Position numbers and translations under genes: made by a program. From an uncultured Christensenellaceae bacterium (lineage in GTDB: Bacteria > Bacillota > Clostridia > Christensenellales > UBA1242), in the NCBI GenBank assembly GCA_910587225.1, contig CAJULT010000001.1, positions 42,753 through 106,752 of the forward strand: a stretch of 64,000 bases of DNA, read 5' to 3'. Under the pieces are notes generated by a model. It was given only the letters and a program-made list of their open reading frames with translations, had not been told where the DNA came from and did not search any database. How positions within the stretch are numbered: the stretch's first letter is position 1; every line of letters begins with the position of its first letter. Of this stretch, positions 6,575 through 58,275 are shown piece after piece.

Positions 6575-6668
6575 CTCGCGACAAAGGTCGGCAAGAGTGA
6601 ATAATTATCGGCAAGAATTTTCTTCGCCGATTTTTTATGCTTTGTTATGCTTAAAGTGGGGGAAGAGG

Positions 6669-7466: not shown

Positions 7467-7474
7467 GAGGCAAT

Positions 7475-8200: not shown

Positions 8201-8348
8201 ACTGCAATAAAACTTCGCGATCGTAATTTTTTCAAAATTACTTGCTGCGTTAACTGTAAAACGCCCCAAAACAGTCATTTAGGTTTACTAAACTCCTGCT
8301 TTGGGACATTTTCCGAGCCTTGCCTCGCTGGTTTTCTTGCAGTCTAAA
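8196..8348 (+). promoter_or_regulatory. Nested hairpin structure in the sigE-sigG spacer
   Basis: A perfect 12-bp outer stem, TTTAGACTGCAA (8196-8207) with TTGCAGTCTAAA (8337-8348), encloses two hairpins at 8223-8241 and 8265-8305. Confidence 0.6.
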
Positions 8349-14298: not shown

Positions 14299-15047
14299 TT
14301 AAAGTTTTAATTTTTACTGCAATTGCAATCGTATCCTATCTTGTAGGGAATATTAACTTTGCGAAAATAATCTCTTGGCACAGACATAGAAAAGATATTA
14401 CAAAGCTTGGTAGTGGCAATCCCGGAACAATGAACATGATGCGTAACTTTGGTTTGGGCGTGGCGCTTGTTACCGTACTTTTGGAGTTTGCTAAGACCAT
14501 TCTTTGCTGCGTGGTAAGTGGTCTTATCATGAAAGGGGATGGACTTTATAACTTCGCTTACTTTTTCGCGGGAGCGTTTGTAGTGCTCGGTTCGGTCTTT
14601 CCTATCGGTACGAAAGGTGGTAAAGGGCTTGCCTGCCTTGCGGGCGTATTTATGTGCAGTCCGCTTTGGTATGTAGGGCTTGGATTATTTGTACTTGGCT
14701 TTGTAGTTTTGTATTTTGTGGATTTCGCTTTTGTACCAACCCTTTCTTTCTGCATACTTATGACAATCGGGCTGACCATTTATTTCTCACTTGTGCGAGT
14801 AACATATTTCTGGGCAATAATAGTGATAATTTGGCTTTTGCTATTTCTTATTATTTTTCAGCATAGAGGCAATATTAAGCGCTTTATTCGCAAGGAAGAA
14901 AAGAAACTGGGCTTTCCTCAAATGGTGAAAAAGTTATTTAAAAAGCAAAAGGGCGTTGAGCAGATTGACGAGGATAAGGTAGACACTCCGCCAGAGGCAG
15001 AAATCGTAATTGACGAAAATGATAAAAATCAAAATCAAAATTCTTAA
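14295..15047 (+). CDS. plsY: Glycerol-3-phosphate acyltransferase PlsY with a hydrophilic C-terminal extension
   Basis: GSGNPGTMN motif, multi-TM, in der-plsY synteny. A tail of roughly 50 aa is charged and Asn/Gln-rich. Confidence 0.85.
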   Translation: MIKVLIFTAIAIVSYLVGNINFAKIISWHRHRKDITKLGSGNPGTMNMMRNFGLGVALVTVLLEFAKTILCCVVSGLIMKGDGLYNFAYFFAGAFVVLGSVFPIGTKGGKGLACLAGVFMCSPLWYVGLGLFVLGFVVLYFVDFAFVPTLSFCILMTIGLTIYFSLVRVTYFWAIIVIIWLLLFLIIFQHRGNIKRFIRKEEKKLGFPQMVKKLFKKQKGVEQIDEDKVDTPPEAEIVIDENDKNQNQNS

Positions 15048-15053
15048 AATATA

Positions 15054-15082
15054 GCATAAAAACTAAACCTCCACCATAGATT
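15054..15082 (+). promoter_or_regulatory. Sigma-E-like promoter candidate for spoIVA
   Basis: GCATAAA-14 nt-CATAGATT compared with the remembered sigma-E consensus ZHATAxx-14-CATACAHT. Confidence 0.45.
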
Positions 15083-15106
15083 AGTGTATCACGTGGAGGT
15101 TATTTT

Positions 15107-16582
15107 ATGGAAAAATATGAAATCTATGATGATATTAAATCCAGAACAGGCGGCGATATATATGTCGGAGTGGTAGGCCCAGTACGCGTTGGAAAGTCTA
15201 CCTTTATTACCGAATTTATGAAAAAGCTTGTTCTTCCAAATATCACCGAGAAAAATGCAAAAGAAAGAACTGTTGATGAGCTTCCTCAATCAGCAGACGG
15301 AAAAACTATCATGACTACTCAGCCGCATTTTGTGCCAAACGAGGCGGTAAAAATCAAGGTTGCTAACGCGGACATGAGAGTAAGAATGATTGACTGCGTT
15401 GGGTATCTTGTAAGCGGCGTTATGGGACATACCGAAAACGAGAAACCACGCCTTGTTAAAACTCCTTGGTCTGAAAAGGAAATGCCTTTTGAAGAGGCGG
15501 CGGAACTTGGCACTAAAAAGGTAATGCAGGAACATTCAACTGTTGGCCTTGTAGTGACAACTGACGGTAGCGTTACCGAGCTTGCAAGAGCAAACTATGT
15601 GGAAGCTGAGGAGAGAGTTGTAGCAGAAATGAAGGCGACAGGCAAACCATTTGTTATGGTGCTTAACACTAAAAACCCAAGCTCTGCTGAAACTAAGAAA
15701 CTAGCAAATGGGCTTAGTGATAAGTACGATGTGCCAGTAGTTGCAGTTGACGCGCTTGACCTTAAAGAAGGGGATATTGACAAGATATTTGAAAAAATGC
15801 TTGGCGAGTTTCCTATTCAATCTATTCGCGTTAAAATGCCAGAGTGGCTTAGAGCGCTTTCTTATGATGATGAGATTATCACCGAAATTGCAAACGAAAT
15901 GCGCAAAATGGGAAGCTCAATCACAAAGTTAAGTCAAATGGACAAAAATCAGTTGGCTTTTACCGAAAGTGCAGCGTTTGACCCTATCACTTTCTCTAAT
16001 ATTGAACTTGGCGAAGGTATCGTTAAATTCAATGTAATACCAAAGGATGACTTATTCTATCGCGTGCTTAGCAAAGAGTGCGGTTATGAAATTAAAGATG
16101 ACTACTGCCTTGTAAACTATATTAAAGAGCTTGCAATTGCTAAACTCGAATATGACAAAATTAAGTTTGCGCTTGACCAAGTTAAAGAAACTGGCTATGG
16201 CATTGTTGAGCCTCGTCGCGAAGAGTTTGTACTTGGTGAACCTGAAATTATCAAGCAGGGTAGCCGTTTCGGCGTTAAGCTTAAAGCGTCAGCACCATCT
16301 CTTCACATTATGCGTGTAGATGTTGATACTGAGGTTACTCCACTTGTGGGAACTGAAACTCAAAGCCAAGACCTTGCTAAAAATCTTATGGAACAGTTTG
16401 AGGCTAACCCTGAAACTATCTGGAACACAAATATTCTCGGTCGCAGCCTAGACAGCCTTATCGGCGACAATATTGCGTCTAAGATAGTTATGATGCCTGT
16501 TGAGGCACAAAACAAGATGCGCAAAACTTTGGGCAGAATTATTAACGAGGGGAAAGGCGGAGTAATATGTATATTACTATGA
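15107..16582 (+). CDS. spoIVA: Stage IV sporulation protein A (spore coat morphogenetic ATPase)
   Basis: N-terminal Walker A VGPVRVGKSTFI and 491 aa length. The SpoIVA-like sequence runs throughout. Confidence 0.93.
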   Translation: MEKYEIYDDIKSRTGGDIYVGVVGPVRVGKSTFITEFMKKLVLPNITEKNAKERTVDELPQSADGKTIMTTQPHFVPNEAVKIKVANADMRVRMIDCVGYLVSGVMGHTENEKPRLVKTPWSEKEMPFEEAAELGTKKVMQEHSTVGLVVTTDGSVTELARANYVEAEERVVAEMKATGKPFVMVLNTKNPSSAETKKLANGLSDKYDVPVVAVDALDLKEGDIDKIFEKMLGEFPIQSIRVKMPEWLRALSYDDEIITEIANEMRKMGSSITKLSQMDKNQLAFTESAAFDPITFSNIELGEGIVKFNVIPKDDLFYRVLSKECGYEIKDDYCLVNYIKELAIAKLEYDKIKFALDQVKETGYGIVEPRREEFVLGEPEIIKQGSRFGVKLKASAPSLHIMRVDVDTEVTPLVGTETQSQDLAKNLMEQFEANPETIWNTNILGRSLDSLIGDNIASKIVMMPVEAQNKMRKTLGRIINEGKGGVICILL

Positions 16583-16583
16583 T

Positions 16584-16758
16584 GCGGGCGGCAACTAGGA
16601 TTTTTTAACGCCAGTACGCCTTGCGGCTAGTGGCTAAAATCCGTTTCCCCCACATGCCCCTTTTAGCCCCCTTGAAAATTTCGTACCGACAATTTTCTGG
16701 CGGGGAGAGGTGTTCAACAAATTTTATAGCCGCGCAAAGCGCTTCCCCTATAAAATTT
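16584..16758 (+). repeat. Structured intergenic element, copy A (candidate ncRNA or 3' UTR element)
   Basis: Aligns over about 175 nt with 41794-41968. It has four helices, three of which carry compensatory changes between the copies. Confidence 0.8.
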
Positions 16759-16776
16759 ATTGACTTAATAAAAAAT

Positions 16777-16802
16777 AAAAGCAGCCATGAGGCTGCTTTT
16801 TT
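16777..16802. terminator. Bidirectional intrinsic terminator
   Basis: AGCAGCC-atga-GGCTGCT flanked by A and T runs. Confidence 0.7.
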
Positions 16803-16947
16803 ATCGCTGAAAAATAATAAGTTGAAATAAAGTATCATTTTTATTTTTGATTAAGAAATAGTTTGGAAATCTTTCAGCATTTTTTAATAAATTTTCTTCT
16901 GTAAGTACATTTAAATATTCTGTCAAAAATTCCATGATTTCGTTCAT
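16801..16947 (-). CDS. Hypothetical 48-aa protein divergent from the XRE regulator
   Basis: ATG at 16947 is preceded by GGAGGTAAAAAT. No recognisable family. Confidence 0.45.
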   Translation of the reverse strand: MNEIMEFLTEYLNVLTEENLLKNAERFPNYFLIKNKNDTLFQLIIFQR

Positions 16948-16973
16948 ATTTTTACCTCCGACACTATTATTCC

Positions 16974-17019
16974 ATGCCTGTGGGCATAATTGCAAATAAT
17001 TTATGCCTTTTGGTATAAA
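16974..17019. promoter_or_regulatory. Two palindromic operator candidates overlapping the xre promoter
   Basis: ATGCCTGTGGGCAT (16974-16987) and ATGCCTTTTGGTAT (17003-17016). The promoter is TTGCAA-18-TATAAA with TGG upstream. Confidence 0.45.
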
Positions 17020-17044
17020 CTTTTTTCGCATAAAGGAGAGAAAT

Positions 17045-17248
17045 ATGAGTAAATTTGCAGAAAGAGTTAAAGAATTACGAGTTGAGAAAGGGTTGTCGCA
17101 AGCGGAACTAGCAAAAGCAATAGGTGTAACTCAATCAATAGTTGCTAGATGGGAGGCTGATTTGCGTATACCTAAAATGGATAGCATTATTGCTTTGACA
17201 GAGTTTTTCAAAATTTCTAGTGATTACTTGATAGGTATTGTTGATTAA
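17045..17248 (+). CDS. XRE-family helix-turn-helix transcriptional regulator (67 aa)
   Basis: LRVEKGLSQAELAKAIGVTQSIVARWE is a canonical HTH_3 sequence. ATG at 17045 after an AAGGAGAG RBS. Confidence 0.85.
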   Translation: MSKFAERVKELRVEKGLSQAELAKAIGVTQSIVARWEADLRIPKMDSIIALTEFFKISSDYLIGIVD

Positions 17249-17276
17249 AAAAAGAAGGCAGTTGCCTTCTTTTTTA
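17247..17276. terminator. Bidirectional terminator between convergent genes
   Basis: aaaaaaAGAAGGCagttGCCTTCTttttt. Confidence 0.7.
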
Positions 17277-17693
17277 TTCGTCTTCGCCTGCGTCCTGTGG
17301 CATATATTCAAATTGTAATTCTTTTGGACTGATGATTTGGGCTTTCTCAGTTTCATTATGAATAGGCAAGAGTGGGGTTTCAAGCGTTTTGCACCAGCCG
17401 ATAATTTTTTTGCCATTACTTTCAGTTTGGCTGTTTTCGTTGAATTCTTCGTTCGGTACGAACTCGCCAACCTTGTAATATTCTTGGTTATATTCAGGTG
17501 AGCGGCGTTCCAGCTTTTTGCCTTTAAAGTAGAAATTCTCTACATCGACATCATAAAGTTTGAAAGAGTAGGTTTCTGTGCCGTACAATTTGAAATTTTT
17601 CTTTACCCACTCAATGTCATGAGTAGGTATTTCTGTTGTTCTTTCACTGCATCCGATATCAGCAATTTTTTCGTGAATATAATGTTTAACCAT
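17274..17693 (-). CDS. Hypothetical cytoplasmic protein (139 aa, acidic C terminus)
   Basis: AGGAGA RBS 8 nt upstream of the ATG at 17693. No family recognised. Confidence 0.7.
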   Translation of the reverse strand: MVKHYIHEKIADIGCSERTTEIPTHDIEWVKKNFKLYGTETYSFKLYDVDVENFYFKGKKLERRSPEYNQEYYKVGEFVPNEEFNENSQTESNGKKIIGWCKTLETPLLPIHNETEKAQIISPKELQFEYMPQDAGEDE

Positions 17694-17715
17694 GATTCTT
17701 ATCTCCTTTTTATAT

Positions 17716-17743
17716 AGTATAACATGCGGGGGGGGGATGTCAA
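17716..17743 (-). promoter_or_regulatory. Sigma-A promoter TTGACA-16-TATACT with a C9 tract in the spacer
   Basis: The minus strand reads TTGACA t CCCCCCCCC gcatgt TATACT. The G9 run is at 17728-17736 on the plus strand. Confidence 0.6.
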
Positions 17744-17819
17744 GTCTGTTTCTAAAAAAACAGCCAACGGCTGTTCACTTTTATGCACGCGCTGCAAGGC
17801 GAGCGCATAAAGTATTATT

Positions 17820-17909
17820 ATGAAAGAGAACAACAAATTTAAAATCATTTGCATTAAAGTGCCTAAATGGCTAAGCTATATCTTACGCAAATTACAAAAA
17901 AGCAACTAA
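17820..17909 (+). CDS. spoVM: SpoVM-like small sporulation peptide (29 aa), absent from the ORF track
   Basis: MKENNKFKIICIKVPKWLSYILRKLQKSN resembles the remembered B. subtilis SpoVM sequence MKFYTIKLPKFLGGIVRAML. Adjacency to rpmB matches B. subtilis synteny. There is no clear SD. Confidence 0.6.
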   Translation: MKENNKFKIICIKVPKWLSYILRKLQKSN

Positions 17910-17920
17910 TTTCAGGGCAT

Positions 17921-17944
17921 AAAAAAGGACTGAAAAGTCAGTCC
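17921..17944 (-). terminator. rpmB terminator
   Basis: GGACTG-aaaagt-CAGTCC, with a T6 run on the minus strand. Confidence 0.6.
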
Positions 17945-17956
17945 TCAAACCTTTCT

Positions 17957-18139
17957 TTATGCCTTCTTTGCTTTTTTGATGCAACGTGTACAAGCCTTAA
18001 CTTTGGTTGGTTTTCCATCAACTTCGATGGTGGTTTCTTGTAAGTTAAGTTCAAAAGTTCTGTTCATCTTCTTGTTTGAAAAGCAAACTTGATGACCTGT
18101 TCCGCGGCTTCTTCCGCATATTTCACATACTCTGCTCAT
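17957..18139 (-). CDS. rpmB: 50S ribosomal protein L28
   Basis: MSRVCEICGR...GHQVCFSNKK. ATG at 18139 after a GGAGGA RBS. Confidence 0.93.
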   Translation of the reverse strand: MSRVCEICGRSRGTGHQVCFSNKKMNRTFELNLQETTIEVDGKPTKVKACTRCIKKAKKA

Positions 18140-18298
18140 AATGTCCTCCAATTCTCACGCATTTAACTATATCATCTTTTTTCTTAAAAATCAACTCTTT
18201 TTGTCAAGATTTCGAAAATTCTTTAAATTTCGTTTGTATTTTTGATTGCTTTATAGTATAGTATATAAAGCAAGAAATATCTTTAAGGGGGCAAAAGC

Positions 18299-18649
18299 TT
18301 GACTGTTGATACCAATAATTATTATGGCAACATTTCAATTAGCGACGACTCGATTAGGGTGGTCGCAGGTTATGCTGCACTTGATTGCTATGGCGTGGTT
18401 GACCTTGTTTCCCGTTCACTTAAAGATAGTGCGCGCGAATTATTAAAAAAAGAATCTTATTCCAAGGGAATTAAAATCAGTCATATCGACAACCGCATCT
18501 ACATTGACGTTTTCTGTATTTTGAAATACGGTGTGTCTATTAGTGCTGTGGCGGAGAGTCTTCGCAATACTGTTAAGTACAGCGTTGAGAGATTTACTGG
18601 CATGCTTGTTGACGCAGTCAATGTTCATGTTGTCGGCGTGAGAGTTTAG
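18299..18649 (+). CDS. Asp23/Gls24-family envelope stress protein (YloU-like)
   Basis: ISISDDSIRVVAGYAALDCYGVVDL is an Asp23 signature. It precedes the DAK2 protein, as yloU-yloV do in Bacillus. Confidence 0.85.
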   Translation: MTVDTNNYYGNISISDDSIRVVAGYAALDCYGVVDLVSRSLKDSARELLKKESYSKGIKISHIDNRIYIDVFCILKYGVSISAVAESLRNTVKYSVERFTGMLVDAVNVHVVGVRV

Positions 18650-18662
18650 GAGATACTATACT

Positions 18663-20297
18663 ATGATAAAGACAATCGGGGGCGCAACATTCCGCAAGAT
18701 GATCGTTGCAGGCGCTAGCCTTCTTGAACAAAACAAAAAGTACGTTGACTCGCTCAACGTTTTTCCTGTACCAGACGGAGATACTGGGACTAATATGTTC
18801 CTCACCATGAAATCTGCTGTTAACGAACTTTCTAAGTGTATCAACAACAATGTTGACGAACTTAGCGAGTGCTTTGCCAAAGGTGCTTTAAAGGGCGCTA
18901 GGGGTAACAGCGGTGTTATCACTTCTCAAATTTTTAAGGGCTTTTGCAGCGAAACAGCTAAGGTAAGTGAAGTTACTACCAAAGTTTTCGCCAAAGCTAT
19001 GCAGGCGGGAGCTGAGATTGCTTACAAAGCAGTTACTAAGCCAAAAGAGGGGACTATTCTTACTGTTATTCGCGTTATGGCTGAAAATGCGGTAAACGTT
19101 GCTAAAAAGTGTGACGACTTTGAAGTTTTCCTTAAAAGCGTACTTGACACAGGTGAAGAAATTTTAAGACAGACACCTGAAATGCTTCCTGTACTCAAAA
19201 AAGCAGGGGTAGTTGACGCGGGCGGACGCGGAATTTTAATTATCTTCACTGGTTTCTATAAACTTCTTATTGGACAAGAGGATCTTGAAATCAATTTTGA
19301 GGACGAACAAAAACCTCAAACCGTTGATGATGTTATTGCCGACATTAACAGTCTTGGCGACATCCAATTCGGTTATTGCACCGAGTATATGATCATCAAC
19401 ATGAACAAAAAGACCACCGAAGCCGACATTGACAAGCTCCGTGAGAAGTTGATGGCAATAGGCGACAGCGTAATCTGCATTGGTGACCTTAACCTTGTAA
19501 AAGTGCATGTTCACTCAAATGAACCTAACAAGGCTATTGGTTACGCTTTGGAGCTTGGCGAAATTTACAATATTAAAATTGAAAATATGCGCGAGCAGAA
19601 CCGTGAATTAAAGAAAAAGGCTAATGTGCTTGAAGAAACTAAGGAAATCGGTATGGTTGCAGTTGCTCCTGGTGAGGGACTTAGCGCAATTTTCAAGGAC
19701 TTGGGGGTTGACGAGATTATTTTTGGCGGACAAACTATGAACCCTAGCGCTGCCGACATTGCAGCTGCGGCTGATAAAGTTCCTGCACGTAATGTCATTG
19801 TATTCCCTAATAATAAGAACATTATTTTGGCTGCACAGCAGGCAAATGACCTTACAAATAAAAACCTTGTAATTATTCCTACCCGCAGCGTTCCAGAAGG
19901 AATTTCAGCGTCTATTGCTTTCAATCCTGAGGGGGCAGTTGAGGAAAATACAGAGGCTATGAAAGAGGCAATTAAAGCTGTTAAATCAGCATCTGTAACC
20001 TATGCGGTGCGTGATACGCATGTTGACGGTTTTGACCTTAGAGTTGGTGAAATCATCGGTCTTGACGATAAGGCAATTTTGGCAAAAGGCAAGCTTGTTG
20101 CTGACACTACCGAAACACTTATCGAAAAGCTTATGACAGAAGAGATTATGACAATAACTCTTTTCTACGGTGAAGACATTCGCGAAGAAGAGGCGATGGC
20201 ACTTGCTGAGAAACTTGGCGCGAAGTATCCTGATTGCGAAGTTTCAGCAGCTTATGGCGGACAGCCAGTATATTACTACCTTGTATCTTTGGAATAA
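18663..20297 (+). CDS. DAK2 domain fusion protein (YloV-like)
   Basis: PDGDTGTNM Dak2 motif, 544 aa, and synteny with asp23. Confidence 0.88.
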   Translation: MIKTIGGATFRKMIVAGASLLEQNKKYVDSLNVFPVPDGDTGTNMFLTMKSAVNELSKCINNNVDELSECFAKGALKGARGNSGVITSQIFKGFCSETAKVSEVTTKVFAKAMQAGAEIAYKAVTKPKEGTILTVIRVMAENAVNVAKKCDDFEVFLKSVLDTGEEILRQTPEMLPVLKKAGVVDAGGRGILIIFTGFYKLLIGQEDLEINFEDEQKPQTVDDVIADINSLGDIQFGYCTEYMIINMNKKTTEADIDKLREKLMAIGDSVICIGDLNLVKVHVHSNEPNKAIGYALELGEIYNIKIENMREQNRELKKKANVLEETKEIGMVAVAPGEGLSAIFKDLGVDEIIFGGQTMNPSAADIAAAADKVPARNVIVFPNNKNIILAAQQANDLTNKNLVIIPTRSVPEGISASIAFNPEGAVEENTEAMKEAIKAVKSASVTYAVRDTHVDGFDLRVGEIIGLDDKAILAKGKLVADTTETLIEKLMTEEIMTITLFYGEDIREEEAMALAEKLGAKYPDCEVSAAYGGQPVYYYLVSLE

Positions 20298-20361
20298 TAA
20301 AAAATATTGTAAAAGCGGCGAAAAAGTCGCTTTTTTTATTACTTTATGTTAGAATATAAGT

Positions 20362-21150
20362 ATGAGAATTGACATTTATCTTGTAAAAAAGGGGATAATA
20401 ACCTCTCGCGAGAAGGCAAAAGAAGCGGTTGTTAATGGTGAGATTATGGTGGGCGGCAGCGTTGTTACTAAGCCCTCTTTTGTAGTGAATGAGGGCGATG
20501 AGGTAAGCGTAAAAGAGGTTAAAAGGTATGTTTCGCGAGGTGCGCACAAGCTTTTACGCGCCAAAAGCGAGTTTGATTTTGAAATCTTAGGCAAGGTAGT
20601 AATGGACATGGGTGCGTCAACTGGCGGCTTTACTCAGGTGGCACTTGAAAGCGGTGCGAGCAAGGTGTATAGTGTGGATGTGGGGCGCGGAGAACTTGCA
20701 ACTATTTTAAGAGAAGACGCGCGGGTTGTGAATATGGAAAATACCGATATCCGTGCGCTTACGGCGGACATGTGCAAAGATGTGCAACTTGTAGTCGGTG
20801 ACTTATCCTTTATTTCGCTAAGACATATTTTACCAAAACTTAAAGACCTATTTGGCAAACCAGAATGTGTGCTTTTATTTAAACCGCAATTTGAGTGCGG
20901 TGCGAATGAAGCGAAAAAATATAAGGGGGTTGTGCTTGATAAGAAACTTCATATAAGGCTACTTGAAGAGTTTGCTATCTATGTTAAAGGGCTTGGTTTT
21001 GAACTTAGTGAACTTACATATAGCGATTTGCGAGGCAAGGAAGGAAACATTGAATATCTTGTGCATTTAAACGGGCTAGCTAAAAAGATTAATATCGTTG
21101 ATATAGTAGAAAATGCGTTTAATGCATTATTAAAAAAGCAACCGAGGTAG
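20362..21150 (+). CDS. tlyA: TlyA-family rRNA 2'-O-methyltransferase
   Basis: N-terminal S4 domain (RIDIYLVKKGIITSREKA) followed by an FtsJ-like methyltransferase (DMGASTGGFTQV). Confidence 0.85.
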   Translation: MRIDIYLVKKGIITSREKAKEAVVNGEIMVGGSVVTKPSFVVNEGDEVSVKEVKRYVSRGAHKLLRAKSEFDFEILGKVVMDMGASTGGFTQVALESGASKVYSVDVGRGELATILREDARVVNMENTDIRALTADMCKDVQLVVGDLSFISLRHILPKLKDLFGKPECVLLFKPQFECGANEAKKYKGVVLDKKLHIRLLEEFAIYVKGLGFELSELTYSDLRGKEGNIEYLVHLNGLAKKINIVDIVENAFNALLKKQPR

Positions 21151-21167: not shown

Positions 21168-21491
21168 TTATTTTTGGTTTCCGCAAAAGGACATTCCTGC
21201 TAAGAAAAATATCAAACTGCATGGGATTTGCAAGTTAAAGCAGCCGCACGGGTCGCAGGGACGAGTGCAGGGATTCCAGTTTGTACAAGGACAGCAAGGT
21301 TGCGGGTTAGGGAAGCCAAAAGGTTGCTGCCAAATATCTGAAAATGGTGGGCGGCAGTTACAGCCATCAAACGGCGGACGAGGGTTTGGGAAAGACCCGC
21401 AGCCACAATCGTTTGGAAAAGGTGGGCGAGGCGGGTGGCGATGAAAACACTGCATATCTACAAAGTTACCAAGTGTATAACTCGTGTTCAT
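21168..21491 (-). CDS. Cys/Pro-rich small protein (107 aa), candidate spore-surface protein
   Basis: Strong AAAGGAGGAAATT RBS before the ATG at 21491. The protein has many Cys and Pro residues (PPRPPFPNDCGCG..., CCPCTNWNPCTRPCDPCGC). Confidence 0.65.
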   Translation of the reverse strand: MNTSYTLGNFVDMQCFHRHPPRPPFPNDCGCGSFPNPRPPFDGCNCRPPFSDIWQQPFGFPNPQPCCPCTNWNPCTRPCDPCGCFNLQIPCSLIFFLAGMSFCGNQK

Positions 21492-24019: not shown

Positions 24020-24085
24020 TTTTACCTCTACAATAACATTTTAGCGGGGATAAAAATATTTGTTACTATTTTGTGGCAGTAAACC

Positions 24086-24114
24086 TTGATTTGAAAAATT
24101 TCGGATTATATAAT
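24086..24114 (+). promoter_or_regulatory. Consensus sigma-A promoter TTGATT-17-TATAAT in front of the phage-like module
   Basis: TTGATT at 24086-24091, a 17-nt spacer, and TATAAT at 24109-24114. Confidence 0.6.
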
Positions 24115-24140: not shown

Positions 24141-24431
24141 GTGGACGATGAGGAAAAGATACGAAAAGCCTTGCTGAAAAAGGCTCTTGGTTACATGGCG
24201 AGCGAAACAGTTGAAGAGTATGTTTTAGATGAGAACGGACAAGAAAAGCTGGCTAAACGAAAGGTAACCAAAAAGCATGTAAGCCCCGATATTGCAGCGG
24301 TTAGAGTTTACCTTGAACGGTACAACACCGACCTTGCAGACAGCATAAGGGGAATGAGCGATGAAGAACTTTTGGCTGAACAAACGCGACTTTTAAAACT
24401 TTTGAAGGAGGAATATGATGGAAATTTATGA
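24141..24431 (+). CDS. Phage protein resembling the C-terminal part of small terminase subunits
   Basis: GTG start after a GGGGAGGAAA RBS. KKALGY...KVTKKHVSPDIAAVRVYLER resembles TerS C-terminal motifs. Confidence 0.4.
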   Translation: MDDEEKIRKALLKKALGYMASETVEEYVLDENGQEKLAKRKVTKKHVSPDIAAVRVYLERYNTDLADSIRGMSDEELLAEQTRLLKLLKEEYDGNL

Positions 24432-24633
24432 GTGTAGGCACAAAGTCAAATGCGATTTTGCGGGCTGTGGAAAGGTGGCAAAATATTCGCTTGTGAAGCG
24501 GGGCTTACTTAGGCGTGACATAAATTTTTGTGATGAATGCCTAAGCGAGATTGCGAGGCTTGCCGGGAAGGTTAAAGCGCCAAGGGCGGTAAAAAGTCCA
24601 TTTAAATTAAATAAAAGGTTGGAGGAGAAATGA
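24418..24633 (+). CDS. Small Cys-rich (zinc-finger-like) phage protein
   Basis: CRHKVKCDFAGCG...FCDECL. Its stop overlaps the portal start (ATGA). Confidence 0.6.
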   Translation: MEIYECRHKVKCDFAGCGKVAKYSLVKRGLLRRDINFCDECLSEIARLAGKVKAPRAVKSPFKLNKRLEEK

Positions 24634-26480
24634 AAAAAGAAAATAGTTTAGTTAAAGAGGTTATTGAAGATTTTAAAGCGCGTCAGTTAGCCCGCAAAAA
24701 CTTTGAAACTGCGTGGCAGATTAATATGAACTTCCTTATGGGAAATCAATACTGCTCTGTTGGCTACGGCGGCAGCGTAGAGGAGGCGGACAAGCAGTTC
24801 TTCTGGCAGGAGAGAGAAGTATTTAACCATATAGCGCCTATTTACGACATTAGATGTGCAAAGCTTGCTAAAAATAAACCTGAGTTTTCGGTTGTCCCTG
24901 CTACCGATGATGAGCGAGATAGACAGGCGTGCAAAGTTTCTAAGAAGATTTTAAATTCGGTTTATTACAAGCTTAACATGGATGAAAAAATCAATCAGGC
25001 GATTAAGTGGAGTGAGGTTTGCGGAACATCCTTTTATAAAGTAAGTTGGAACGCCTCACAAGGTCAGCTTATTGCCACAGATGATGAAAATCGTGAGATT
25101 AGAAGCGGGGAAGTTGAGGTTGAAGTGTGCAGCCCATTTGAAATTTTTCCTGACGATCCTACTCATGAAAATATTGAAGACTGCCAAAGCATAATTCATG
25201 CTAGGGCATATAGCGTGGAGCAAATAGAAAAGCTTTACGGAGTTAAGGTCGACGGAGAGAGAATGAATTGTTACAGCCTTAACAGCGTTGCGAAGGGGCT
25301 GGGCGGACTTGGTTATAACGCTACTGCAACAAAGCTAATCGAAAGTGAAAAAGACAACTGTGCGCTGGTGCTTGAGCGTTATTCAAGACCGACAGTAGAT
25401 TTTCCAAATGGAAGGCTTGTAATTATCGCTGGGCAGACTTTGGTGTATGACGGTGAGCTTCCTTATGCATGCGGTAATGACGGCAAGCGCGACTTCCCAT
25501 TTATTAAGCAGTCAAGCATTGAGCAGACTGGATGTTTTTGGGGCGGCAGCGTGATTGAAAGGTTAGTACCTGTTCAAAGAGCGTACAATGCGGTTAAAAA
25601 TCGCAAACATGAATATATTAACAGACTTACACTTGGCGTTTTAAGTGTGGAGGACGGGTCAATTGACCTTGATGACTTAGAGGAAGAAGGACTTGCACCC
25701 GGCAAGGTTCTTGTTTACAGGCAGGGGGCAAGTGAGCCGCATTATTTGTCGGGCGAAAACATACCTAGCGGCTTTGCTGACGAGGAAGAAAAGCTGCTTG
25801 ATGAATTTAACAAAATCAGCGGGGTAAGTGACAAGTTTGGCAGTGATTTTGCAAGAACAAACATTTCGGGAACATCTCTTGAACTTATGATAAGTGAAGA
25901 TGAATCAAGACTTAACATTTCAGCGCAGTCAATTAAAGCGGCGTCAACTTCTATTGCAAGAAAGATTTTAAGACTTTATAAGCAGTTTGCCCTGTTCCCT
26001 CGTCTTGCAAGAATAGTAGGTGATAACGGACAAATTGAACTTTTCTACTTTTCGTCAAATGATATTTCTAGTGATGATGTTATGGTTGACCTGACGGGCG
26101 ACAATGCGCAGACGATGGTTCAAAAGCGGGAACTTATATTCGAGCTTTTAAAGGCAGGAGTTCTTTCTGACGAAGAGGGCAAGGTGCAGCCAACCATGAA
26201 AGTTAAAATTCTTGACATGCTTGGCATGGGCAACTGGGAAAGTGCGCAGGATATAAGTCAGCTTCACATTAAAAAAGCCGAAAAAGAGAACTTAAAGCTT
26301 TTGGACGGTGTGAATGTTAAGGTCAGCGAAATTGATGAGCATCAGCTCCACATTTCAAGCCACATTGCATTTATGCTAGGCGGCGACTATGAAAGTATAA
26401 AAACCAAAAATCCGCAACTTGAAGAGCTTTTTATGGCACATATCAAAGCTCACAAGCGTGCAAGTAAAATGGAGGAATAA
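24630..26480 (+). CDS. Phage portal protein
   Basis: 616 aa, placed before the scaffold and capsid genes. Portal-like N terminus (FETAWQINMNFLMGNQY). Confidence 0.75.
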   Translation: MKKENSLVKEVIEDFKARQLARKNFETAWQINMNFLMGNQYCSVGYGGSVEEADKQFFWQEREVFNHIAPIYDIRCAKLAKNKPEFSVVPATDDERDRQACKVSKKILNSVYYKLNMDEKINQAIKWSEVCGTSFYKVSWNASQGQLIATDDENREIRSGEVEVEVCSPFEIFPDDPTHENIEDCQSIIHARAYSVEQIEKLYGVKVDGERMNCYSLNSVAKGLGGLGYNATATKLIESEKDNCALVLERYSRPTVDFPNGRLVIIAGQTLVYDGELPYACGNDGKRDFPFIKQSSIEQTGCFWGGSVIERLVPVQRAYNAVKNRKHEYINRLTLGVLSVEDGSIDLDDLEEEGLAPGKVLVYRQGASEPHYLSGENIPSGFADEEEKLLDEFNKISGVSDKFGSDFARTNISGTSLELMISEDESRLNISAQSIKAASTSIARKILRLYKQFALFPRLARIVGDNGQIELFYFSSNDISSDDVMVDLTGDNAQTMVQKRELIFELLKAGVLSDEEGKVQPTMKVKILDMLGMGNWESAQDISQLHIKKAEKENLKLLDGVNVKVSEIDEHQLHISSHIAFMLGGDYESIKTKNPQLEELFMAHIKAHKRASKMEE

Positions 26481-26485
26481 AAATT

Positions 26486-27085
26486 ATGGAAGAAATCAGA
26501 GAACAACCGACCATGGAACCGGCAAATGTTTCGATTGAAACGGGTGAGGTGAGTGCTGCGAGTGAGGTCGGCTCTCAAACCGTTCGACAAGTTGAAAAAC
26601 CCGAACAAAGTGAATTTGGTAAGTTCAAAAATGCGGAAAGTTTGCTTACGGCCTATAACAATCTTGAAGCTGAGTTTACCAAAAAATGCCAAAGGCTGAG
26701 CGAACTTGAGAAAGAGCAAGCTCCTACGGCGGCGCAGTCGCTTGAAGAGTTTCTTTCGAATAAGCAGGAGGCTCGACCATTTGCGGACAAGTTGCAAGCG
26801 CTTGCAACTGAAAGCAAAAATGGGTCATACGAGGGGGCATGGGAAAGGCTGGTATATGAAAGCCTTACAAAGGGTGATACCTCTGACCCGATAATAAGTC
26901 ATTATATATTATCTAATAATGAACTTAAAGAAAAAATAGTTGAAGACTATCTAAACGCACTAAACAATAACAAACCGCCGATTATAATTTCATCGCAAAA
27001 GGGAGAACGAGTGTCTAGTGTAAAACCAGACACTCCGACTTCACTTGCGGAAGCTAAAAAAATGGTGGAGAAAATGTTTAGCTAA
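26486..27085 (+). CDS. Phage capsid scaffolding protein
   Basis: 199 aa, acidic and helical, with GKFKNAESLLTAYNNLEAEFTKK. Lies between the portal and capsid genes. Confidence 0.6.
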   Translation: MEEIREQPTMEPANVSIETGEVSAASEVGSQTVRQVEKPEQSEFGKFKNAESLLTAYNNLEAEFTKKCQRLSELEKEQAPTAAQSLEEFLSNKQEARPFADKLQALATESKNGSYEGAWERLVYESLTKGDTSDPIISHYILSNNELKEKIVEDYLNALNNNKPPIIISSQKGERVSSVKPDTPTSLAEAKKMVEKMFS

Positions 27086-27098
27086 AAGGAGAAAAAAA

Positions 27099-28298
27099 AT
27101 GGTTACATTACAAACAGCGGAAAACGCTTTAAAATCTGTTTATCTCGGCGCTATTGCTGAGCAAATCAACATTGCCACAAGTCCACTTTTTGCTAAAATT
27201 AAAAGAGCGAGCAAGGACATCTTCGGTAAAGAAATCGTAAAAGCTGCACCTTTTGGTGTTAATGGTGGTTTCTGTGCTGGTGGCGAAACTGACGCACTTC
27301 CTGTTGCTGGCAATTCAAGCTATGTTCAACTTAGAAGCGCTCTTAAAAACCTCTATGGAAAATTTGAAATCAGTGACAAGGCAGTACGTGCTTCAACAAG
27401 CAATGTTGGCGCATTTGTAAACCTTCTTGCTGATGAGATGGAAAAGCTTGTTAAATCTTGCTCTTTCAATCTCAACCGCATGCTTTTTGGTGACGGAAGC
27501 GGACTTGTTGCAACTGTTTCAGCTGCTACGGCAGGGGAACTTACCTGCGATAGCGTAAGAAACCTTGCAGAAGGTATGATGCTTGACGTTTACAAAGCAG
27601 ACGGAACTAAACTTGGACAAGTTCCTATGACTATTATCTCTGTTGACAGAGTTAATAACAAGGTAAAATATGCTACCACTTTCACAGACACTGTTTCGGC
27701 TGGTGCTAAACTTTACATTCAAGGTTCAAAAGATAAAGAAATCACTGGTATTGAAGCGCTCTTTACCGCAAGCGAACTTTATGGACTTAAAAAGAGCGAT
27801 TATGCTTGGCTTACTCCATACAAGGATGCAACAGCAGGTGAAATTAGCGACATTCGCATCCAAAAGGCAATCGACTTCTTGGAAGAAAACGCTGACAGCC
27901 GCGTAAACTTTATCGCAACTTCTAGAGAAGTTCGTCGTGCTTACCAAGAATATCTTGGCATTTATCGCAAGAACGTTGATATTGTGGACATGGGAAATGG
28001 TTACAAGACTATCACTCACAATGGCATACCTGTATATGCTGAAAGATTTATGGCTCCTAAGGCTATGTATCTTCTTAATACTGATGACTTCACCCTTTAT
28101 GAAATGGCTGACTGGTCTTGGATTGAGGACGGCGCAGGTCACATTTTAAGACAAAATGCAGGCTTCCCAACTTACAGTGCAACACTTGTAAAATATGCTG
28201 AACTTATCTGTGATAAACCACTCGGACAGGGCAAACTTGAAAACATAGCTCTTAGCGTGGAAGATCCTTACAAAACATACATTCCAGCAAATGAGTAA
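27099..28298 (+). CDS. Phage major capsid protein
   Basis: ATG at 27099 after an AAAGGAGAAA RBS. About 400 aa. Called from position and general capsid-like sequence. Confidence 0.7.
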   Translation: MVTLQTAENALKSVYLGAIAEQINIATSPLFAKIKRASKDIFGKEIVKAAPFGVNGGFCAGGETDALPVAGNSSYVQLRSALKNLYGKFEISDKAVRASTSNVGAFVNLLADEMEKLVKSCSFNLNRMLFGDGSGLVATVSAATAGELTCDSVRNLAEGMMLDVYKADGTKLGQVPMTIISVDRVNNKVKYATTFTDTVSAGAKLYIQGSKDKEITGIEALFTASELYGLKKSDYAWLTPYKDATAGEISDIRIQKAIDFLEENADSRVNFIATSREVRRAYQEYLGIYRKNVDIVDMGNGYKTITHNGIPVYAERFMAPKAMYLLNTDDFTLYEMADWSWIEDGAGHILRQNAGFPTYSATLVKYAELICDKPLGQGKLENIALSVEDPYKTYIPANE

Positions 28299-28342
28299 AG
28301 GATGAGAGGCAATAGCCTCTTTTCCTTTTATGGAGAAATATA

Positions 28343-28657
28343 ATGAAAAAATACTTAATCGTAGAACATGACCCACTGTTTATCTGCCAAAGACTGAAAG
28401 AAATTGATGAAAGTTACTTTGTGCTTTACAACCTGCAATCCTGTCAATTTGAAGTGCACTCAAATGCGCAGGAGGGAAATAGTTTTTGCTTTGCAGTTCG
28501 GTTTGACGGGCTGGACGCGAGAACGCTTGAAAAGGCAAGGGAAACTCGAAAAGAAAACATTGATGCGCTTATTGCTAAAATGGATGAAGAAAACGACAGA
28601 CTCTATAAAAAGCAGATTGAGGATGCGGCATGGGCTATGGCGGAGGTGATAAAATGA
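28343..28657 (+). CDS. Phage hypothetical protein (104 aa)
   Basis: Has an RBS and is translationally coupled to the next gene (ATGA overlap). Confidence 0.6.
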   Translation: MKKYLIVEHDPLFICQRLKEIDESYFVLYNLQSCQFEVHSNAQEGNSFCFAVRFDGLDARTLEKARETRKENIDALIAKMDEENDRLYKKQIEDAAWAMAEVIK

Positions 28658-29205
28658 AAGCATACGAAGTAATAAAACTTGCATGCGAGCTTTGTGAGGA
28701 TGATTTTGCAGATAAACTTGAAGATATTGAAAATATCTCGTTTTCAGAAGATGAGCAAAAGAAGATAAAAAAACTTTTATCTCTTCTTGACCTTGTAACA
28801 AGTGAGGCAGCGACTGAGCGTCCACTAACTTGCGAGGAAACTTTAAAAAGTGAAAATGGCAAGCTTATGCTAAAAAATCTTGGCGAGAAGTTACTTTCGG
28901 TGGTGTCTATCAAAAATGAAAATGGGAGAAGGCTTAACTACAAAATTTTCTCTTCTTACATTTCGGTAGAGGCTGAAAGCGTGAAAATTCGTTACACTTA
29001 TCTTCCAAAGAAGGCAACTATTGATAGCGAAGTGGAAACGCATCTGCCGCTTAGGATTTTGGCGTTTGCGCTTGCAAGAGAGATATGTCTAAGCGAAGGT
29101 CTTAACGAAGATGCTGATATATTTGAAGAGCGTTACAAGGCTGCACTTTCACTTCTTCCTTCACTTAAAAGAAGAGCAAGCGTTAGCGGGAGGAGGTGGC
29201 TTTAA
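28654..29205 (+). CDS. Phage head-completion/adaptor-like protein
   Basis: ATG at 28654 after a GGAGGTGA RBS. Called from position after the capsid gene; identity is tentative. Confidence 0.45.
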   Translation: MKAYEVIKLACELCEDDFADKLEDIENISFSEDEQKKIKKLLSLLDLVTSEAATERPLTCEETLKSENGKLMLKNLGEKLLSVVSIKNENGRRLNYKIFSSYISVEAESVKIRYTYLPKKATIDSEVETHLPLRILAFALAREICLSEGLNEDADIFEERYKAALSLLPSLKRRASVSGRRWL

Positions 29206-30659
29206 TGGCTAAATTTAACTCAAAAACCATTAAAACATTTACTTTTAACGATTTTTGCCGCCCAGATGGGCAGAAAGAAGATTATCAGACTAAGGCGATA
29301 AGTTATAACTTTTTCTTAGACAAACAGTCTTTTTCAAGCGGTTATGGCGTGGAAGTTATGAAAATGCCGACCGACAAAAATGACTTAAATAATCAGACGC
29401 CACTCGACATGGTGGGAAGTCAGGTTTTGCGTATGTGGAGCTTTCCATGGTTTAACGACTGGGAAAATGAAATAAAGTATAAACTTTTCTACTTTAATGA
29501 TCAGAAACAGTTTGTTAATATGACTATTATCGGTTCGCGCGAGCTTGATAGCCCTCTATCAAGTAATTTTACAAGCGTGCCTGTAGGAATGAACTACCGC
29601 ATTCATGGTCATGACTATATGATTTTCTCGGCAGCTGACGGGGATACATACGCGCTTGGCGAAACTTATCAGAAGGTACTTGAAAATGCTCCTAAGCTTA
29701 TGGATATATGTTCACATGATGATAAGCTTTATGCCTTAACCGCAACCGGCAGGCGAACTCTTGTTTACTCGGAAAGTAACAACATTTTCGATTGGGACAA
29801 TTCCACAACCGCACACCTTGATTTTACAGATGAGCGCGGACAGATGACAAAGGTGTTATCTTTTAATGATTACCTTTATGTCTTTCGCGAGTTTGGAATT
29901 ACAAGGGTGTCAACTTATGCAAATGGTGAGTTTAACATATCCCATATTTTTCAATCTACTAGCTATATCTTCCCTGAAACAATTTCATCAAGTGGTGAAG
30001 AGATTTATTTCTTAACGCGTGAGGGATTTTATAGATTTGACGGCTCTACCGTGAAAAAACTAGATTTGGACTTGGCAAAAAATATTCAAGACTTAACTCA
30101 TGCTAGCGCGTCAGTATTTGAAGGTAAGTATTATCTTGCCTGCAGGCTCGATTTTAAAGACGCAGCCACAGTAGGCTGCGAAGAGGGTGAGTATATAAAC
30201 AATGCAATCATTATCTATGATATTGGCAGCGGCGAGGTGGAAGTGATGCGCGGGGTAGATGCGGCGCAGCTACTTGCACTGAACAATCCTTACGTTTCAA
30301 AACTTGCTATTTCTTTTAATGGAGAACATATCGGAAAAATAGGGCAGCTTTCTTCTGACGGAAAAATATTTGGAAGTAGTATAAGAAAATATTGGTCAAG
30401 TAAATTTAGTTACTTTGGTATGGGGCGCGGCATGAAACGAGTTGAAAGTTTTTCTTTCAACTTTGAAGGCAAGTTCACCTTAAAAATTGAGAGTGACATT
30501 GACGCAAAAGAATTTACTTTTGAAGGGACTGGCACAAAGCGGGTGCGCGTAAAACTTAGTGGTCACAAATTTAAGTTAAGTTTTGCATCAGATGACGACG
30601 TGAAAATAAATGATTTTCAAATTTCAATAAGCGCGCAAAGTGAAGCTCGACAACTATAA
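29205..30659 (+). CDS. Phage structural protein (484 aa), function unknown
   Basis: ATG at 29205 overlaps the previous stop (TAATG) after GGGAGGAGGTGG. Appears beta-rich. Confidence 0.55.
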   Translation: MAKFNSKTIKTFTFNDFCRPDGQKEDYQTKAISYNFFLDKQSFSSGYGVEVMKMPTDKNDLNNQTPLDMVGSQVLRMWSFPWFNDWENEIKYKLFYFNDQKQFVNMTIIGSRELDSPLSSNFTSVPVGMNYRIHGHDYMIFSAADGDTYALGETYQKVLENAPKLMDICSHDDKLYALTATGRRTLVYSESNNIFDWDNSTTAHLDFTDERGQMTKVLSFNDYLYVFREFGITRVSTYANGEFNISHIFQSTSYIFPETISSSGEEIYFLTREGFYRFDGSTVKKLDLDLAKNIQDLTHASASVFEGKYYLACRLDFKDAATVGCEEGEYINNAIIIYDIGSGEVEVMRGVDAAQLLALNNPYVSKLAISFNGEHIGKIGQLSSDGKIFGSSIRKYWSSKFSYFGMGRGMKRVESFSFNFEGKFTLKIESDIDAKEFTFEGTGTKRVRVKLSGHKFKLSFASDDDVKINDFQISISAQSEARQL

Positions 30660-30754
30660 CCATATTAATTATATAAATCGAAAGAACATAGTTATCTGGG
30701 AGGTAGTTATGAAAAATATTCTCGAACTGAAAAATAAATCGGCAGACAGTAAAA

Positions 30755-30988
30755 ATGGATTTTTGGAATGAGCTTATAAGCGTCGTCGTGTCAAATGGTG
30801 TTTTTGCAACGCTTTTTGTATTCTTGTTTTTCTATCAACTTAAAGATAGCGCAAAACGAGAAAAAGCATATCAAAATACTATTGCAAATCTGACCGAGCA
30901 TCTTCAAATGATAGAGGATGTCAAGGAAGAAGTATCTGAACTTAAAGACCTTATTTTAAAGGAGGACGAAAGTGAAACAGAAGATTAA
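30755..30988 (+). CDS. BhlA/UviB-family holin-like protein
   Basis: NGVFATLFVFLFFYQLKDSAKREKAYQNTI parallels the remembered BhlA sequence QGPFAVLFCWLLFYVMKTSKERE. Confidence 0.7.
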   Translation: MDFWNELISVVVSNGVFATLFVFLFFYQLKDSAKREKAYQNTIANLTEHLQMIEDVKEEVSELKDLILKEDESETED

Positions 30989-31217
30989 ATCATACGGATT
31001 TTGGACAGCACTTTCGGGTGCGGTGGTTGTTCTTTTGGAAGCGCTCGGCAAAGCCTTTGGCTTTTCTGTGAATAATGATGTTGTTTCTTCAATCATTATG
31101 GCAATAGCCGGCGTGCTAGTTGTATTTGGCGTTGTAAGCATGCCAAATAAAGACAAGGACAATAGCGAAACTGAAGAGAAGCAGGAAAATGAACAAGACA
31201 AAGAAAAAGGGGAATAA
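30972..31217 (+). CDS. Phage holin (two-TM, phi-LC3-like)
   Basis: GTG start after a GGAGGA RBS. Two hydrophobic helices and a charged C-terminal tail. Confidence 0.65.
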   Translation: MKQKIKSYGFWTALSGAVVVLLEALGKAFGFSVNNDVVSSIIMAIAGVLVVFGVVSMPNKDKDNSETEEKQENEQDKEKGE

Positions 31218-31230
31218 TTCCCCTTTTTTT
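31204..31230 (+). terminator. Terminator ending the phage-like module
   Basis: GGGGAAT-a-ATTCCCC followed by a T7 run. Confidence 0.65.
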
Positions 31231-49544: not shown

Positions 49545-49836
49545 TTTTTCCTCCTAAGAATTTCCTATGTAATTTGTGGGGCTTAAATTGCCTACACATT
49601 AACATACTATTTATTCGTCACTTTTTTTGTGCGTGATTTAGAGGAAAAATTTAATTTATTTTTCGACAAAACAAGTGTTTTTTCTTTCGCATATTAAATG
49701 CACTTGTCCACAAAATATTTTTGTCTTTCAGGACGAAAACAGTTGACAATAAACGAAAAATAAGGTAAACTTAAAAAGATTATATTGGTAGGCTGTCGCT
49801 ATGTGGCGACTGCCACTAAAATTGCGAGGTTTATAT

Positions 49837-56290: not shown

Positions 56291-56605
56291 ATGGAATTTA
56301 AGAAAGAACTAGGAGAAATGCTCCTAACATTATCAACTAAGTTAGTTGAAGAAGAAATGAAAACTGAAAATGATACAGAATTGAAATCGCTTTATGAACA
56401 AGCAAAAGAACTTCAAAGCAAATTTGAGAAATATGCCTCAAGTTTAGAGCCAAGCAAAGAAACATTTAGCAAGTTAATGAATTTGGACATTACAATTACA
56501 AATATTCATCAATCACTGAATGAGAAGATTAGTGCTTCAAGAAAGTCTATTATGAAAGATTTTGTTGAAGATGTTGTAAAGGAAGGTGATGAAGATGGAG
56601 AATAA
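56291..56605 (+). CDS. Phage hypothetical coiled-coil protein
   Basis: GAGGAAAAATT RBS. 104 aa, helical and acidic. Confidence 0.6.
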   Translation: MEFKKELGEMLLTLSTKLVEEEMKTENDTELKSLYEQAKELQSKFEKYASSLEPSKETFSKLMNLDITITNIHQSLNEKISASRKSIMKDFVEDVVKEGDEDGE

Positions 56606-58266: not shown

Positions 58267-58275
58267 AGGTGGAAC

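Follow-up and report, generated by a model that had tools for sequence, protein, structure and literature searches.

What keeps a set of phage head and holin genes, apparently devoid of the large terminase subunit (TerL), in a bacterial chromosome between an ABC transporter and comEC? This question is posed by a stretch of 64,000 nucleotides from an uncultured Christensenellaceae bacterium (GenBank assembly GCA_910587225.1, contig CAJULT010000001.1, positions 42,753 to 106,752; hereafter the window, with positions counted from its first letter), in which ten co-oriented and translationally coupled open reading frames (ORFs) occupy positions 24141-31217, all on the plus strand. An earlier note on this DNA, whose coordinates for the ten ORFs proved correct, had described them as a head-plus-holin module without tail genes, and had offered a capsid-forming satellite, a domesticated particle or gene transfer agent (GTA)-like system, or a recently truncated prophage as explanations. 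Our analysis favours the second of these in an extended form: the block is rather probably the structural-plus-lysis operon of a dispersed, domesticated, podovirus-derived GTA-like element, whose packaging motor is encoded elsewhere.

Proteins encoded by the operon

The view that tail genes are missing is overturned by predicted structures. The seventh gene, g7 (28654-29205, 183 aa, with ATG 28654 as its true start according to homologue alignments), gave an AlphaFold model with a predicted local distance difference test score (pLDDT) of 95 from a 100-sequence alignment, and in a Foldseek search of the PDB all 22 of its 22 best matches were adaptor, connector or tail tubular protein A chains of phages, including KHP30, Pa223, SU10, PhiM1, A4 (template modelling score, TM, 0.71) and KP32. 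Moreover, the Pfam family SU10_adaptor is matched by two members of the g7 family. By its predicted fold, g7 is a podovirus head-to-tail adaptor of the P22 gp4/T7 gp11/SU10 type. The product of g8 (29205-30659, 484 aa) was modelled from a 58-sequence alignment as a beta-propeller plus beta-sandwich (pLDDT 90, predicted TM 0.90), and its Foldseek matches in the PDB include the Pa223 tail (9nwi_Y, E 2e-19, TM 0.74), VP1, SU10, GP4, the P22 tail complex and T7 gp12, while many matches in the BFVD viral structure library are annotated "P22 Gp10, DNA-stabilising". A profile search of PDB sequences returned for g8 a weak SU10 match only, and a tblastn search of cultured phages returned none. On the strength of the model, g8 is a tail hub/nozzle of the P22 gp10/T7 gp12 type.

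Because of this predicted adaptor and hub, the block is to be read as a capsid with a podoviral stub tail and holins, and not as a head only. The earlier note had proposed checking the unassigned ORFs for tail proteins; that check undoes its head-only description and leaves its wider idea of a domesticated element untouched. The parts of a P22-like tail machine, namely a P22-type portal, a gp4-type adaptor and a gp10-type hub, are all present, and the order portal, scaffold, capsid, adaptor, hub is the one found in P22, T7 and SU10, with which the likeness lies in the adaptor and hub folds and the P22-type portal. Unlike those phages, the window block is without needle/plug, tailspike/fibre, ejection proteins, TerL and replication genes, and its proteins share 10-16% sequence identity with the solved structures. 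In 17 related loci, a coiled-coil protein of ~300 aa (Pfam DUF7934, E 9e-36; 15878-16783 in locus L009, and 16 others) is encoded between the tail hub and BhlA, and its position and composition would fit a needle/plug or an ejection protein. A 1360-aa ORF of the window (49801-53883) was considered as a fibre gene and rejected, having no similarity to tail proteins of the related loci and no Pfam match.

For the portal, the major capsid protein, the BhlA-type protein, the holin and the first gene, g1, profile matches agree with what the earlier note had proposed. The portal (24630-26480, 616 aa) matches PF16510 P22_portal (1.4e-20) and phrog_156 (3.5e-38). The major capsid protein (27099-28298, 399 aa) matches NCBIfam NF033394 capsid_maj_Podo at 6.5e-66, above the curated cut-off, and phrog_14242 at 4e-49; its nearest relatives among cultured phages, at 27-29% identity, come from Arthrobacter Jasminevirus, Microbacterium and Cellulosimicrobium phages. 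Jasminevirus phages, which we take to be podoviruses, and related actinophages thus have the closest cultured-phage capsids and share the order terminase, two small ORFs, portal, scaffold-like gene, capsid, but they belong to complete lytic phages of Actinobacteria, with genomes of 45 kb. A scaffold-like gene (26486-27085, 199 aa), which separates the portal gene from the capsid gene in 52 loci, weakly matches phrog_1052 ("head assembly"); by position and composition it encodes a probable scaffolding protein. Likewise, g6 (28343-28657, 104 aa) lies between capsid and adaptor genes in 31 loci, has no significant match in Pfam, PHROG or PDB sequences, and would by position be a head or neck accessory protein.

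The product of g1 (24141-24431, 96 aa) resembles the small terminase subunit (TerS), as phrog_309 (TerS) is matched by 34 of the 36 family members and phrog_23444 (TerS) by 16. Members of the family are 89-151 aa long as called, ~96-115 aa in most loci, and what they conserve is the TerS oligomerisation core, without a helix-turn-helix or N-terminal DNA-binding domain. In relatives, the g1 homologue lies directly downstream of TerL. From this domain content g1 appears to be a non-specific TerS. Profile searches of g7, g6 and g1 against PDB sequences gave nothing meaningful, and matches of g1 to designed repeat proteins in such a search were dismissed as spurious. The following g2 (24418-24633, 71 aa), rightly called Cys-rich in the earlier note, encodes a zinc ribbon with four invariant cysteines (CxxxxC...CxxC) in 16 homologues and a basic C-terminal tail; it has no match in Pfam, PHROG or NCBIfam, and sits between g1 and the portal gene in 19 loci, including loci with TerL upstream.

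Two lysis-type genes close the operon. A BhlA/UviB-type holin-like protein (30755-30988, 77 aa; PF10960 Holin_BhlA 2.8e-17, phrog_2429 2.5e-13) keeps its position in 23 loci, and it is followed by a holin (30972-31217, 81 aa) with two predicted membrane helices, a phrog_297 match (4.9e-10) and a weak PF04531 match. As previously noted, neither TerL nor an endolysin, integrase, repressor or replication gene was found in the block or adjoining it.

Conservation, inheritance and selection

A portal scan of species-representative genomes yielded 24 loci, and a later portal-alignment scan of IMG/VR yielded 36 further loci (below, these and other loci of the family carry numbers with the prefix L). 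The 24 species-level genomes carry the block with portal identities of 52-71%, with the same ten genes in the same order wherever the contig allows, and with ORFs that are full length compared to their homologues. The same ABC transporter adjoins 15 of these 24 loci, and comEC follows in the five closest loci, whose flanks extend that far; more distant copies occupy other housekeeping contexts, such as that between murE-mraY-murD-ftsW and rpsB-tsf. No integrase, replication or lysogeny gene flanks any examined copy. Over 28 pairs, portal identity follows flanking host gene identity with r = 0.97-0.98, and identities of the ABC ATPase and the membrane protein next to the block correlate with those of portal and capsid at r = 0.90-0.98. 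Since synonymous divergence (dS) between the window and its nearest species is saturated, closer species pairs were used for the ratio of nonsynonymous to synonymous substitution (dN/dS, Nei-Gojobori), which lies at 0.02-0.32 for all ten genes in five close pairs, the same range as for the flanking ABC and membrane genes; for g1 it is 0.03-0.06 in four of the five. The block is fixed in the chromosome, vertically inherited and under purifying selection.

These observations bear directly on the less interesting fates that a TerL-less block may have met. The lack of TerL, fibres, endolysin, integrase and replication genes could point to a decaying podovirus prophage remnant without present function, but this is improbable, as the ten ORFs are full length against 24 species, selection on them is purifying, the promoter is conserved, and the block is retained down to 52% portal identity; none of the marks of a cryptic prophage (pseudogenes, relaxed selection, patchy distribution) was found. 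Furthermore, the block is 100% identical across five independent assemblies of the same species, so that the reading frames are real and not sequencing artefacts. The argument that intact ORFs speak against simple decay is hence borne out, and the frameshifts that the earlier note thought resequencing might reveal are absent. Its suggestion of a recently truncated prophage fails, the same TerL-less block being common to species across the whole range of portal identity given above. Conservation in 24 species, co-divergence, dN/dS and the conserved promoter together are grounds for excluding recent truncation, a mobile satellite and neutral decay.

A satellite had seemed attractive because capsid genes without TerL, as in capsid-forming phage-inducible chromosomal islands (cf-PICI), could rely on a helper for terminase and tails, and a complete temperate phage indeed begins 25 kb downstream of the block, running from 56291 to 64000 and past the window end (L073-L075) with genes for RusA, a DnaC-like loader, an MT-A70 methylase, a PAPS-reductase-like protein, RtcB, a Terminase_2 small subunit, a 444-aa terminase and a 521-aa portal. 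We nevertheless hold this explanation to be very improbable. The block has no integrase, attachment (att) site, replication gene or derepression module, its chromosomal site is constant from species to species, with divergence in step with that of the host, and it encodes an adaptor and tail hub of its own, whereas the prophage is mobile, being found at different chromosomal sites elsewhere (directly after comEC-holA in one genome, beside an rve transposase in another), and its 444-aa terminase has no BLAST similarity to the TerL of the particle family. Scarcely credible is an active temperate podophage scrambled by assembly or binning errors: although IMG/VR classes many related contigs as viral, the same host flanks recur in independent assemblies and species, and the "viral" contigs carry host genes on their own flanks, from which the IMG/VR copies look chromosomal too.

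The operon also carries expression signals, much as the earlier note had described them. Reading frames of g1 and g2 overlap by 14-17 nt, ATGA overlaps join g2 to the portal gene (24630) and g6 to g7 (28654), g7 and g8 meet in a TAATG overlap (29203-29207), and a GGAGG-type ribosome-binding site precedes all ten starts, that of the holin being a GTG with an AGGAGG site inside the end of bhlA. Upstream, motif scan and sequence place a promoter at 24074-24114 (plus strand), in which a -35 TTGATT, a 17-nt spacer and a -10 TATAAT (24086-24114) are preceded by TGGCA 7 nt upstream of the -35. In a 12-species alignment the -35 TTG, the -10 TAnnAT and the TGGCA element are all invariant, and the last may take part in expression. 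A sigma-54 reading of TGGCA-N-TTGC was rejected, the GG-to-GC spacing being 11 and not 10, most copies having TTGA, and a conserved -10 box following; sporulation-sigma promoters were ruled out by the -35 and -10 sequences. Downstream of the capsid gene, a stem-loop with a T-rich tract (28304-28321, plus strand), recorded as a terminator-like match in the scan, is a possible partial terminator or attenuator. The operon ends in an intrinsic terminator, AAAAAGGGGAATAATTCCCCTTTTTTT (31204-31230, plus strand; scan and sequence), a G+C-rich hairpin followed by a T-run that overlaps the holin stop codon.

As the earlier note had it, host genes bound the block on both sides: a divergent ABC permease/ATPase pair on the left, and comEC, only 78 nt beyond the holin terminator in the window, then holA and pcrA on the right. 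The host is a spore former, with spoIVA, spoIIGA, sigE and sigG within the window, and the extended left side holds housekeeping genes. Several features of these surroundings and of individual loci deserve mention in their own right. At positions 24020-24060 and their homologues, the divergent ABC transporter operon has a strongly conserved 5' leader (ACCTCTACAATAACATTCTAT, plus strand); a regulatory RNA is one possibility, and an operator in common with the intergenic region of the particle operon is another. A 107-aa ORF rich in Cys, Pro and Gly (21168-21491, minus strand; CGCG, CPC and PCxxC motifs) adjoins the gene for the membrane protein, an arrangement conserved in the seven nearest species, and may encode a spore-coat-type protein. 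The space between holin and comEC is occupied in the closest species (L001, L002 and L004-L007) by two genes on the minus strand that encode large lipoprotein-like products of ~630-700 aa and 330-510 aa, both absent in the window. In L033, a restriction-modification island (13950-21062; two Dcm methylases and a McrBC-like AAA+ pair) sits as an insertion directly behind the capsid gene, and no g6, adaptor or hub homologue was detected downstream of the island in that locus. The IMG/VR relative L027 has four additional small genes between portal and scaffold (6514-8264), of which three are paralogues of ~112 aa. Finally, dS is uneven along the operon in close pairs, highest in the portal and lowest in scaffold and capsid (2.05 versus 0.31 and 0.55 for L001/L004), for which codon-usage selection on highly expressed genes or recombination are possible causes.

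The large terminase and its regulator

If the element is still to package DNA, a TerL has to come from somewhere, and relatives of the window copy suggest where. About 25 of the 36 IMG/VR loci carry an intact TerL of ~480 aa immediately upstream of the g1 homologue; it is related to Terminase_6N/6C, its Walker A/B and nuclease motifs are intact, and mean column identity is 72%. Several loci also carry, ahead of TerL, the genes for a divergent SH3-domain membrane protein and for a 185-aa regulator, whose fold resembles sigma-70 region 4 and which also matches phage transcription regulators. The ancestral order was hence regulator, SH3, TerL, g1, g2, portal, scaffold, capsid, g6, adaptor, hub, DUF7934, BhlA, holin. 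The earlier note had expected TerL between TerS and portal, which is not its ancestral position in this family; the part missing from the window was upstream of g1, and the overlaps of g1, g2 and portal are therefore native, as that note had judged on seeing no deletion scar, and the same arrangement is found in relatives with TerL upstream of g1.

From this starting point, TerL occurs at increasing distance from the head genes. In L078-L081, a 783-aa gene lies between TerL and g1. TerL precedes g1 by 5.7 kb in L020, by 6.7 kb in L012, and by 8.1 kb in L077, where nine genes intervene; the intervening genes in L012 are host genes, among them those for the membrane protein and the ABC transporter next to the window copy. 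In L067-L069, regulator, SH3 and TerL stand alone beside mgsA with no head genes within 10 kb, and the same trio lies beside mgsA in L076, where the contig ends ~3 kb downstream of TerL. Beyond these loci, the TerL family comprises more than 4,900 clusters at 90% identity, with contigs of up to 787 kb among the matches listed. That relatives keep TerL and regulator at a separate locus, together with conservation in 24 species, co-divergence, purifying selection and the promoter, upholds the domesticated or GTA-like option of the earlier note.

Judging from these relatives, we infer that TerL is kept elsewhere in the genome of the window species. Several findings weigh against this and against the GTA-like reading as a whole. 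Nine related TerLs detected no family member in the 64-kb window at E<=10 (tblastn), and over the 24 genome loci they found TerL in L012 and L020 only. Neither regulator, SH3 nor DUF7934 homologues were found in the window, nor any of these or TerL in the 7 kb further left and 10 kb further right, which leaves ~81 kb around the window copy free of TerL. In the TerL searches, each of which returned more than 4,600 clusters, the window species' own TerL was not picked out among the matches listed, the 120 listed lying too near the query sequences, and the four TerL matches traced to their genomic contexts came from assemblies other than those of the window species. That TerL can be lost in the family is shown by two loci with otherwise intact head genes, which keep upstream of them only a 5'-truncated TerL, reduced to the C-terminal ~160-200 residues or nuclease-domain half (L036 5313-5864, L037 9101-9712). 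DUF7934 is absent from the whole window clade, and no needle/plug, tailspike/fibre, receptor-binding protein or endolysin was identified in the block. Furthermore, the GTA-like assignment of the window element is drawn from its genes, and the taxonomy of the 24 carriers from the titles of their records (uncultured Clostridia, Eubacteriales, Christensenella sp., Catabacter sp.), which suggest Christensenellales-like organisms.

The same observations would suit an element that is domesticated and truly TerL-less, the operon being kept for a job without DNA packaging, such as making empty or protein/RNA-filled particles, acting as a phage decoy, or programmed lysis: TerL is missing over ~81 kb, the remnants in L036 and L037 show that it can be lost, the DUF7934 gene has been lost as well in the window clade, and all ten genes are still under purifying selection. 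We consider this unlikely. The retained and strongly conserved g1 makes little sense without a terminase, TerL is still intact, in cis or in trans, in the sister clade that shares the ABC-transporter junction, and adaptor and hub are DNA-retention proteins. To a more specific version we give only a slight chance, namely that a lineage without terminase and DUF7934, in which portal, capsid, adaptor, hub and holins are nevertheless selected, has turned the operon into a self-lysing capsid machine with a role other than DNA transfer (a protein or RNA container, a decoy, or altruistic lysis).

The promoters offer a candidate signal common to the head operon and the TerL locus. The motif TG(A/G/T)CA-N6-7-TTGA(C)-N17-TAtAAT also lies upstream of the regulator gene or TerL in related loci; in L077, a near-identical motif of ~20 nt precedes the regulator gene (TTTTTGACATAAAGCTTTGAC) and g1 (TTTTTGACATAAAACCTTGAAA), more than 8 kb apart, and its window counterpart is TTTGTGGCAGTAAACCTTGATT. 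We take this shared motif for a regulon signature, and it may be bound by the sigma-region-4-like protein. Perfect Firmicute-type LexA (Cheo) boxes, GAACATATGTTC or GAACGTATGTTC, lie ~170 nt upstream of the regulator gene in L078-L081 and ~50-160 nt upstream of TerL in L055-L057 and L060, which suggests SOS control of the element in some lineages. The regulator promoter is also preceded by TTGTAAA direct repeats. A motif scan of the window found no LexA box.

Beside TerL, another gene recurs. Directly after it, several lineages encode a 730-840-aa protein with a signal peptide and G-rich repeats (L078 11552-13903, L012 3066-5495, L067 11613-14120, L077 11519-13849, L036 7268-9466), three of the five copies inspected (L012, L036, L078) having a C-terminal membrane anchor. 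A homologous protein of 600-660 aa follows the holin in another lineage (L010 12074-14017, L013, L022, L009), and no homologue of this surface protein was found in the window. This recurrent linkage suggests that it takes part in the element's activity, possibly as a receptor, an exclusion factor or a surface partner.

Proposed mechanism and relation to known systems

Under the favoured reading, the conserved sigma-A-type promoter with its TGGCA element would drive the ten coupled genes, and portal, scaffold and capsid protein would assemble a procapsid. DNA would be packaged by a TerL supplied from another locus, where relatives encode it together with the sigma-region-4-like regulator and the SH3 membrane protein, with g1 as the TerS core assisting the packaging of host DNA; because g1 is without a DNA-binding domain, packaging would presumably be non-specific, and the particles may carry random host DNA. 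Adaptor g7 and hub g8 would then close the portal, and the BhlA-like protein and the holin would release the particles together with a host autolysin or an unlinked lysin. Three features of GTAs are found here: the particle genes are fixed, vertically inherited and under selection; no replication, integration or lysogeny gene lies in or beside the cluster, whose flanks are the ABC transporter, comEC, holA and pcrA; and TerS, judged by the domain content of g1, is without a sequence-specific DNA-binding domain.

To our knowledge, GTAs outside Alphaproteobacteria are barely known. RcGTA of that class resembles the window element, under the favoured reading, in being domesticated, vertically inherited, under purifying selection and dispersed over several loci, with a TerS lacking DNA-binding specificity and release by lysis, but it has a siphovirus-like long tail, TerL in its main cluster and lysis genes at a separate locus, and its protein families and host phylum are unrelated. 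PBSX of Bacillus subtilis is likewise a defective, chromosomally fixed Firmicute element that packages random host DNA and relies on holin-mediated lysis; it differs by its myovirus-like contractile tail, by having TerS and TerL in the cluster, and by being a killing particle. Late genes of PBSX depend on the sigma-like factor Xpf.

The closest parallel among described systems is FpGTA of Faecalibacterium, a demonstrated chromosomal, podovirus-like, two-locus GTA with a ~10-kb operon for TerS, TerL, portal, scaffold, capsid and short-tail proteins and a second locus for other functions, whose particles look tail-less, measure ~40 nm and contain 8.4-8.9 kb of random host DNA (PMC12946183, Nat Commun 2026). 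Both elements are found in gut Clostridia and are chromosomal, podovirus-like and, in the case of the window element under the favoured reading, spread over more than one locus, with a TerS without DNA-binding domain and no replication or integration genes. In FpGTA, however, TerS lies upstream of a TerL that belongs to the main operon, and the holin is in operon II with an endolysin, whereas in the window element TerS follows the ancestral TerL position, the operon is without TerL, and two holin-type genes end the head operon without a linked endolysin. The FpGTA capsid (RCH50849.1) is named "N4-gp56 family" by NCBI, whereas the window capsid matches NF033394 capsid_maj_Podo only. On this evidence the window element would function like FpGTA, yet it belongs outside the FpGTA family, from which NCBI family names and gene order set it apart. 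The high-GC IMG/VR relatives L054-L060 are not FpGTA either, because their capsid is capsid_maj_Podo. Full-text literature searches found no earlier description of the window element.

FpGTA, published in 2026, is the first known gut example of a GTA. The same study reports GTA-like packaging in Christensenellaceae metagenome-assembled genomes, with fragments of ~4-7 kb and modal lengths of ~4.1 kb and 6.3 kb, and in the sections consulted names a gene cluster for Faecalibacterium only (PMC12946183). The window element is a concrete candidate for this activity. It is not a new kind of system; rather, it appears to be a widespread, previously unassigned element of the GTA-like kind in a gut lineage, present in 24 species in one scan and with an adaptor family of 594 representatives at 50% identity. 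Its loci record an unusually clear domestication series, in which TerL is adjacent to the head genes, separated from them by one inserted gene, separated by several host genes, fully separate, or reduced to truncated remnants. For the study of horizontal gene flow in this gut lineage, which is heritable and health-associated, testable points of entry are the promoter motif, the sigma-like regulator and, in some relatives, the LexA boxes.

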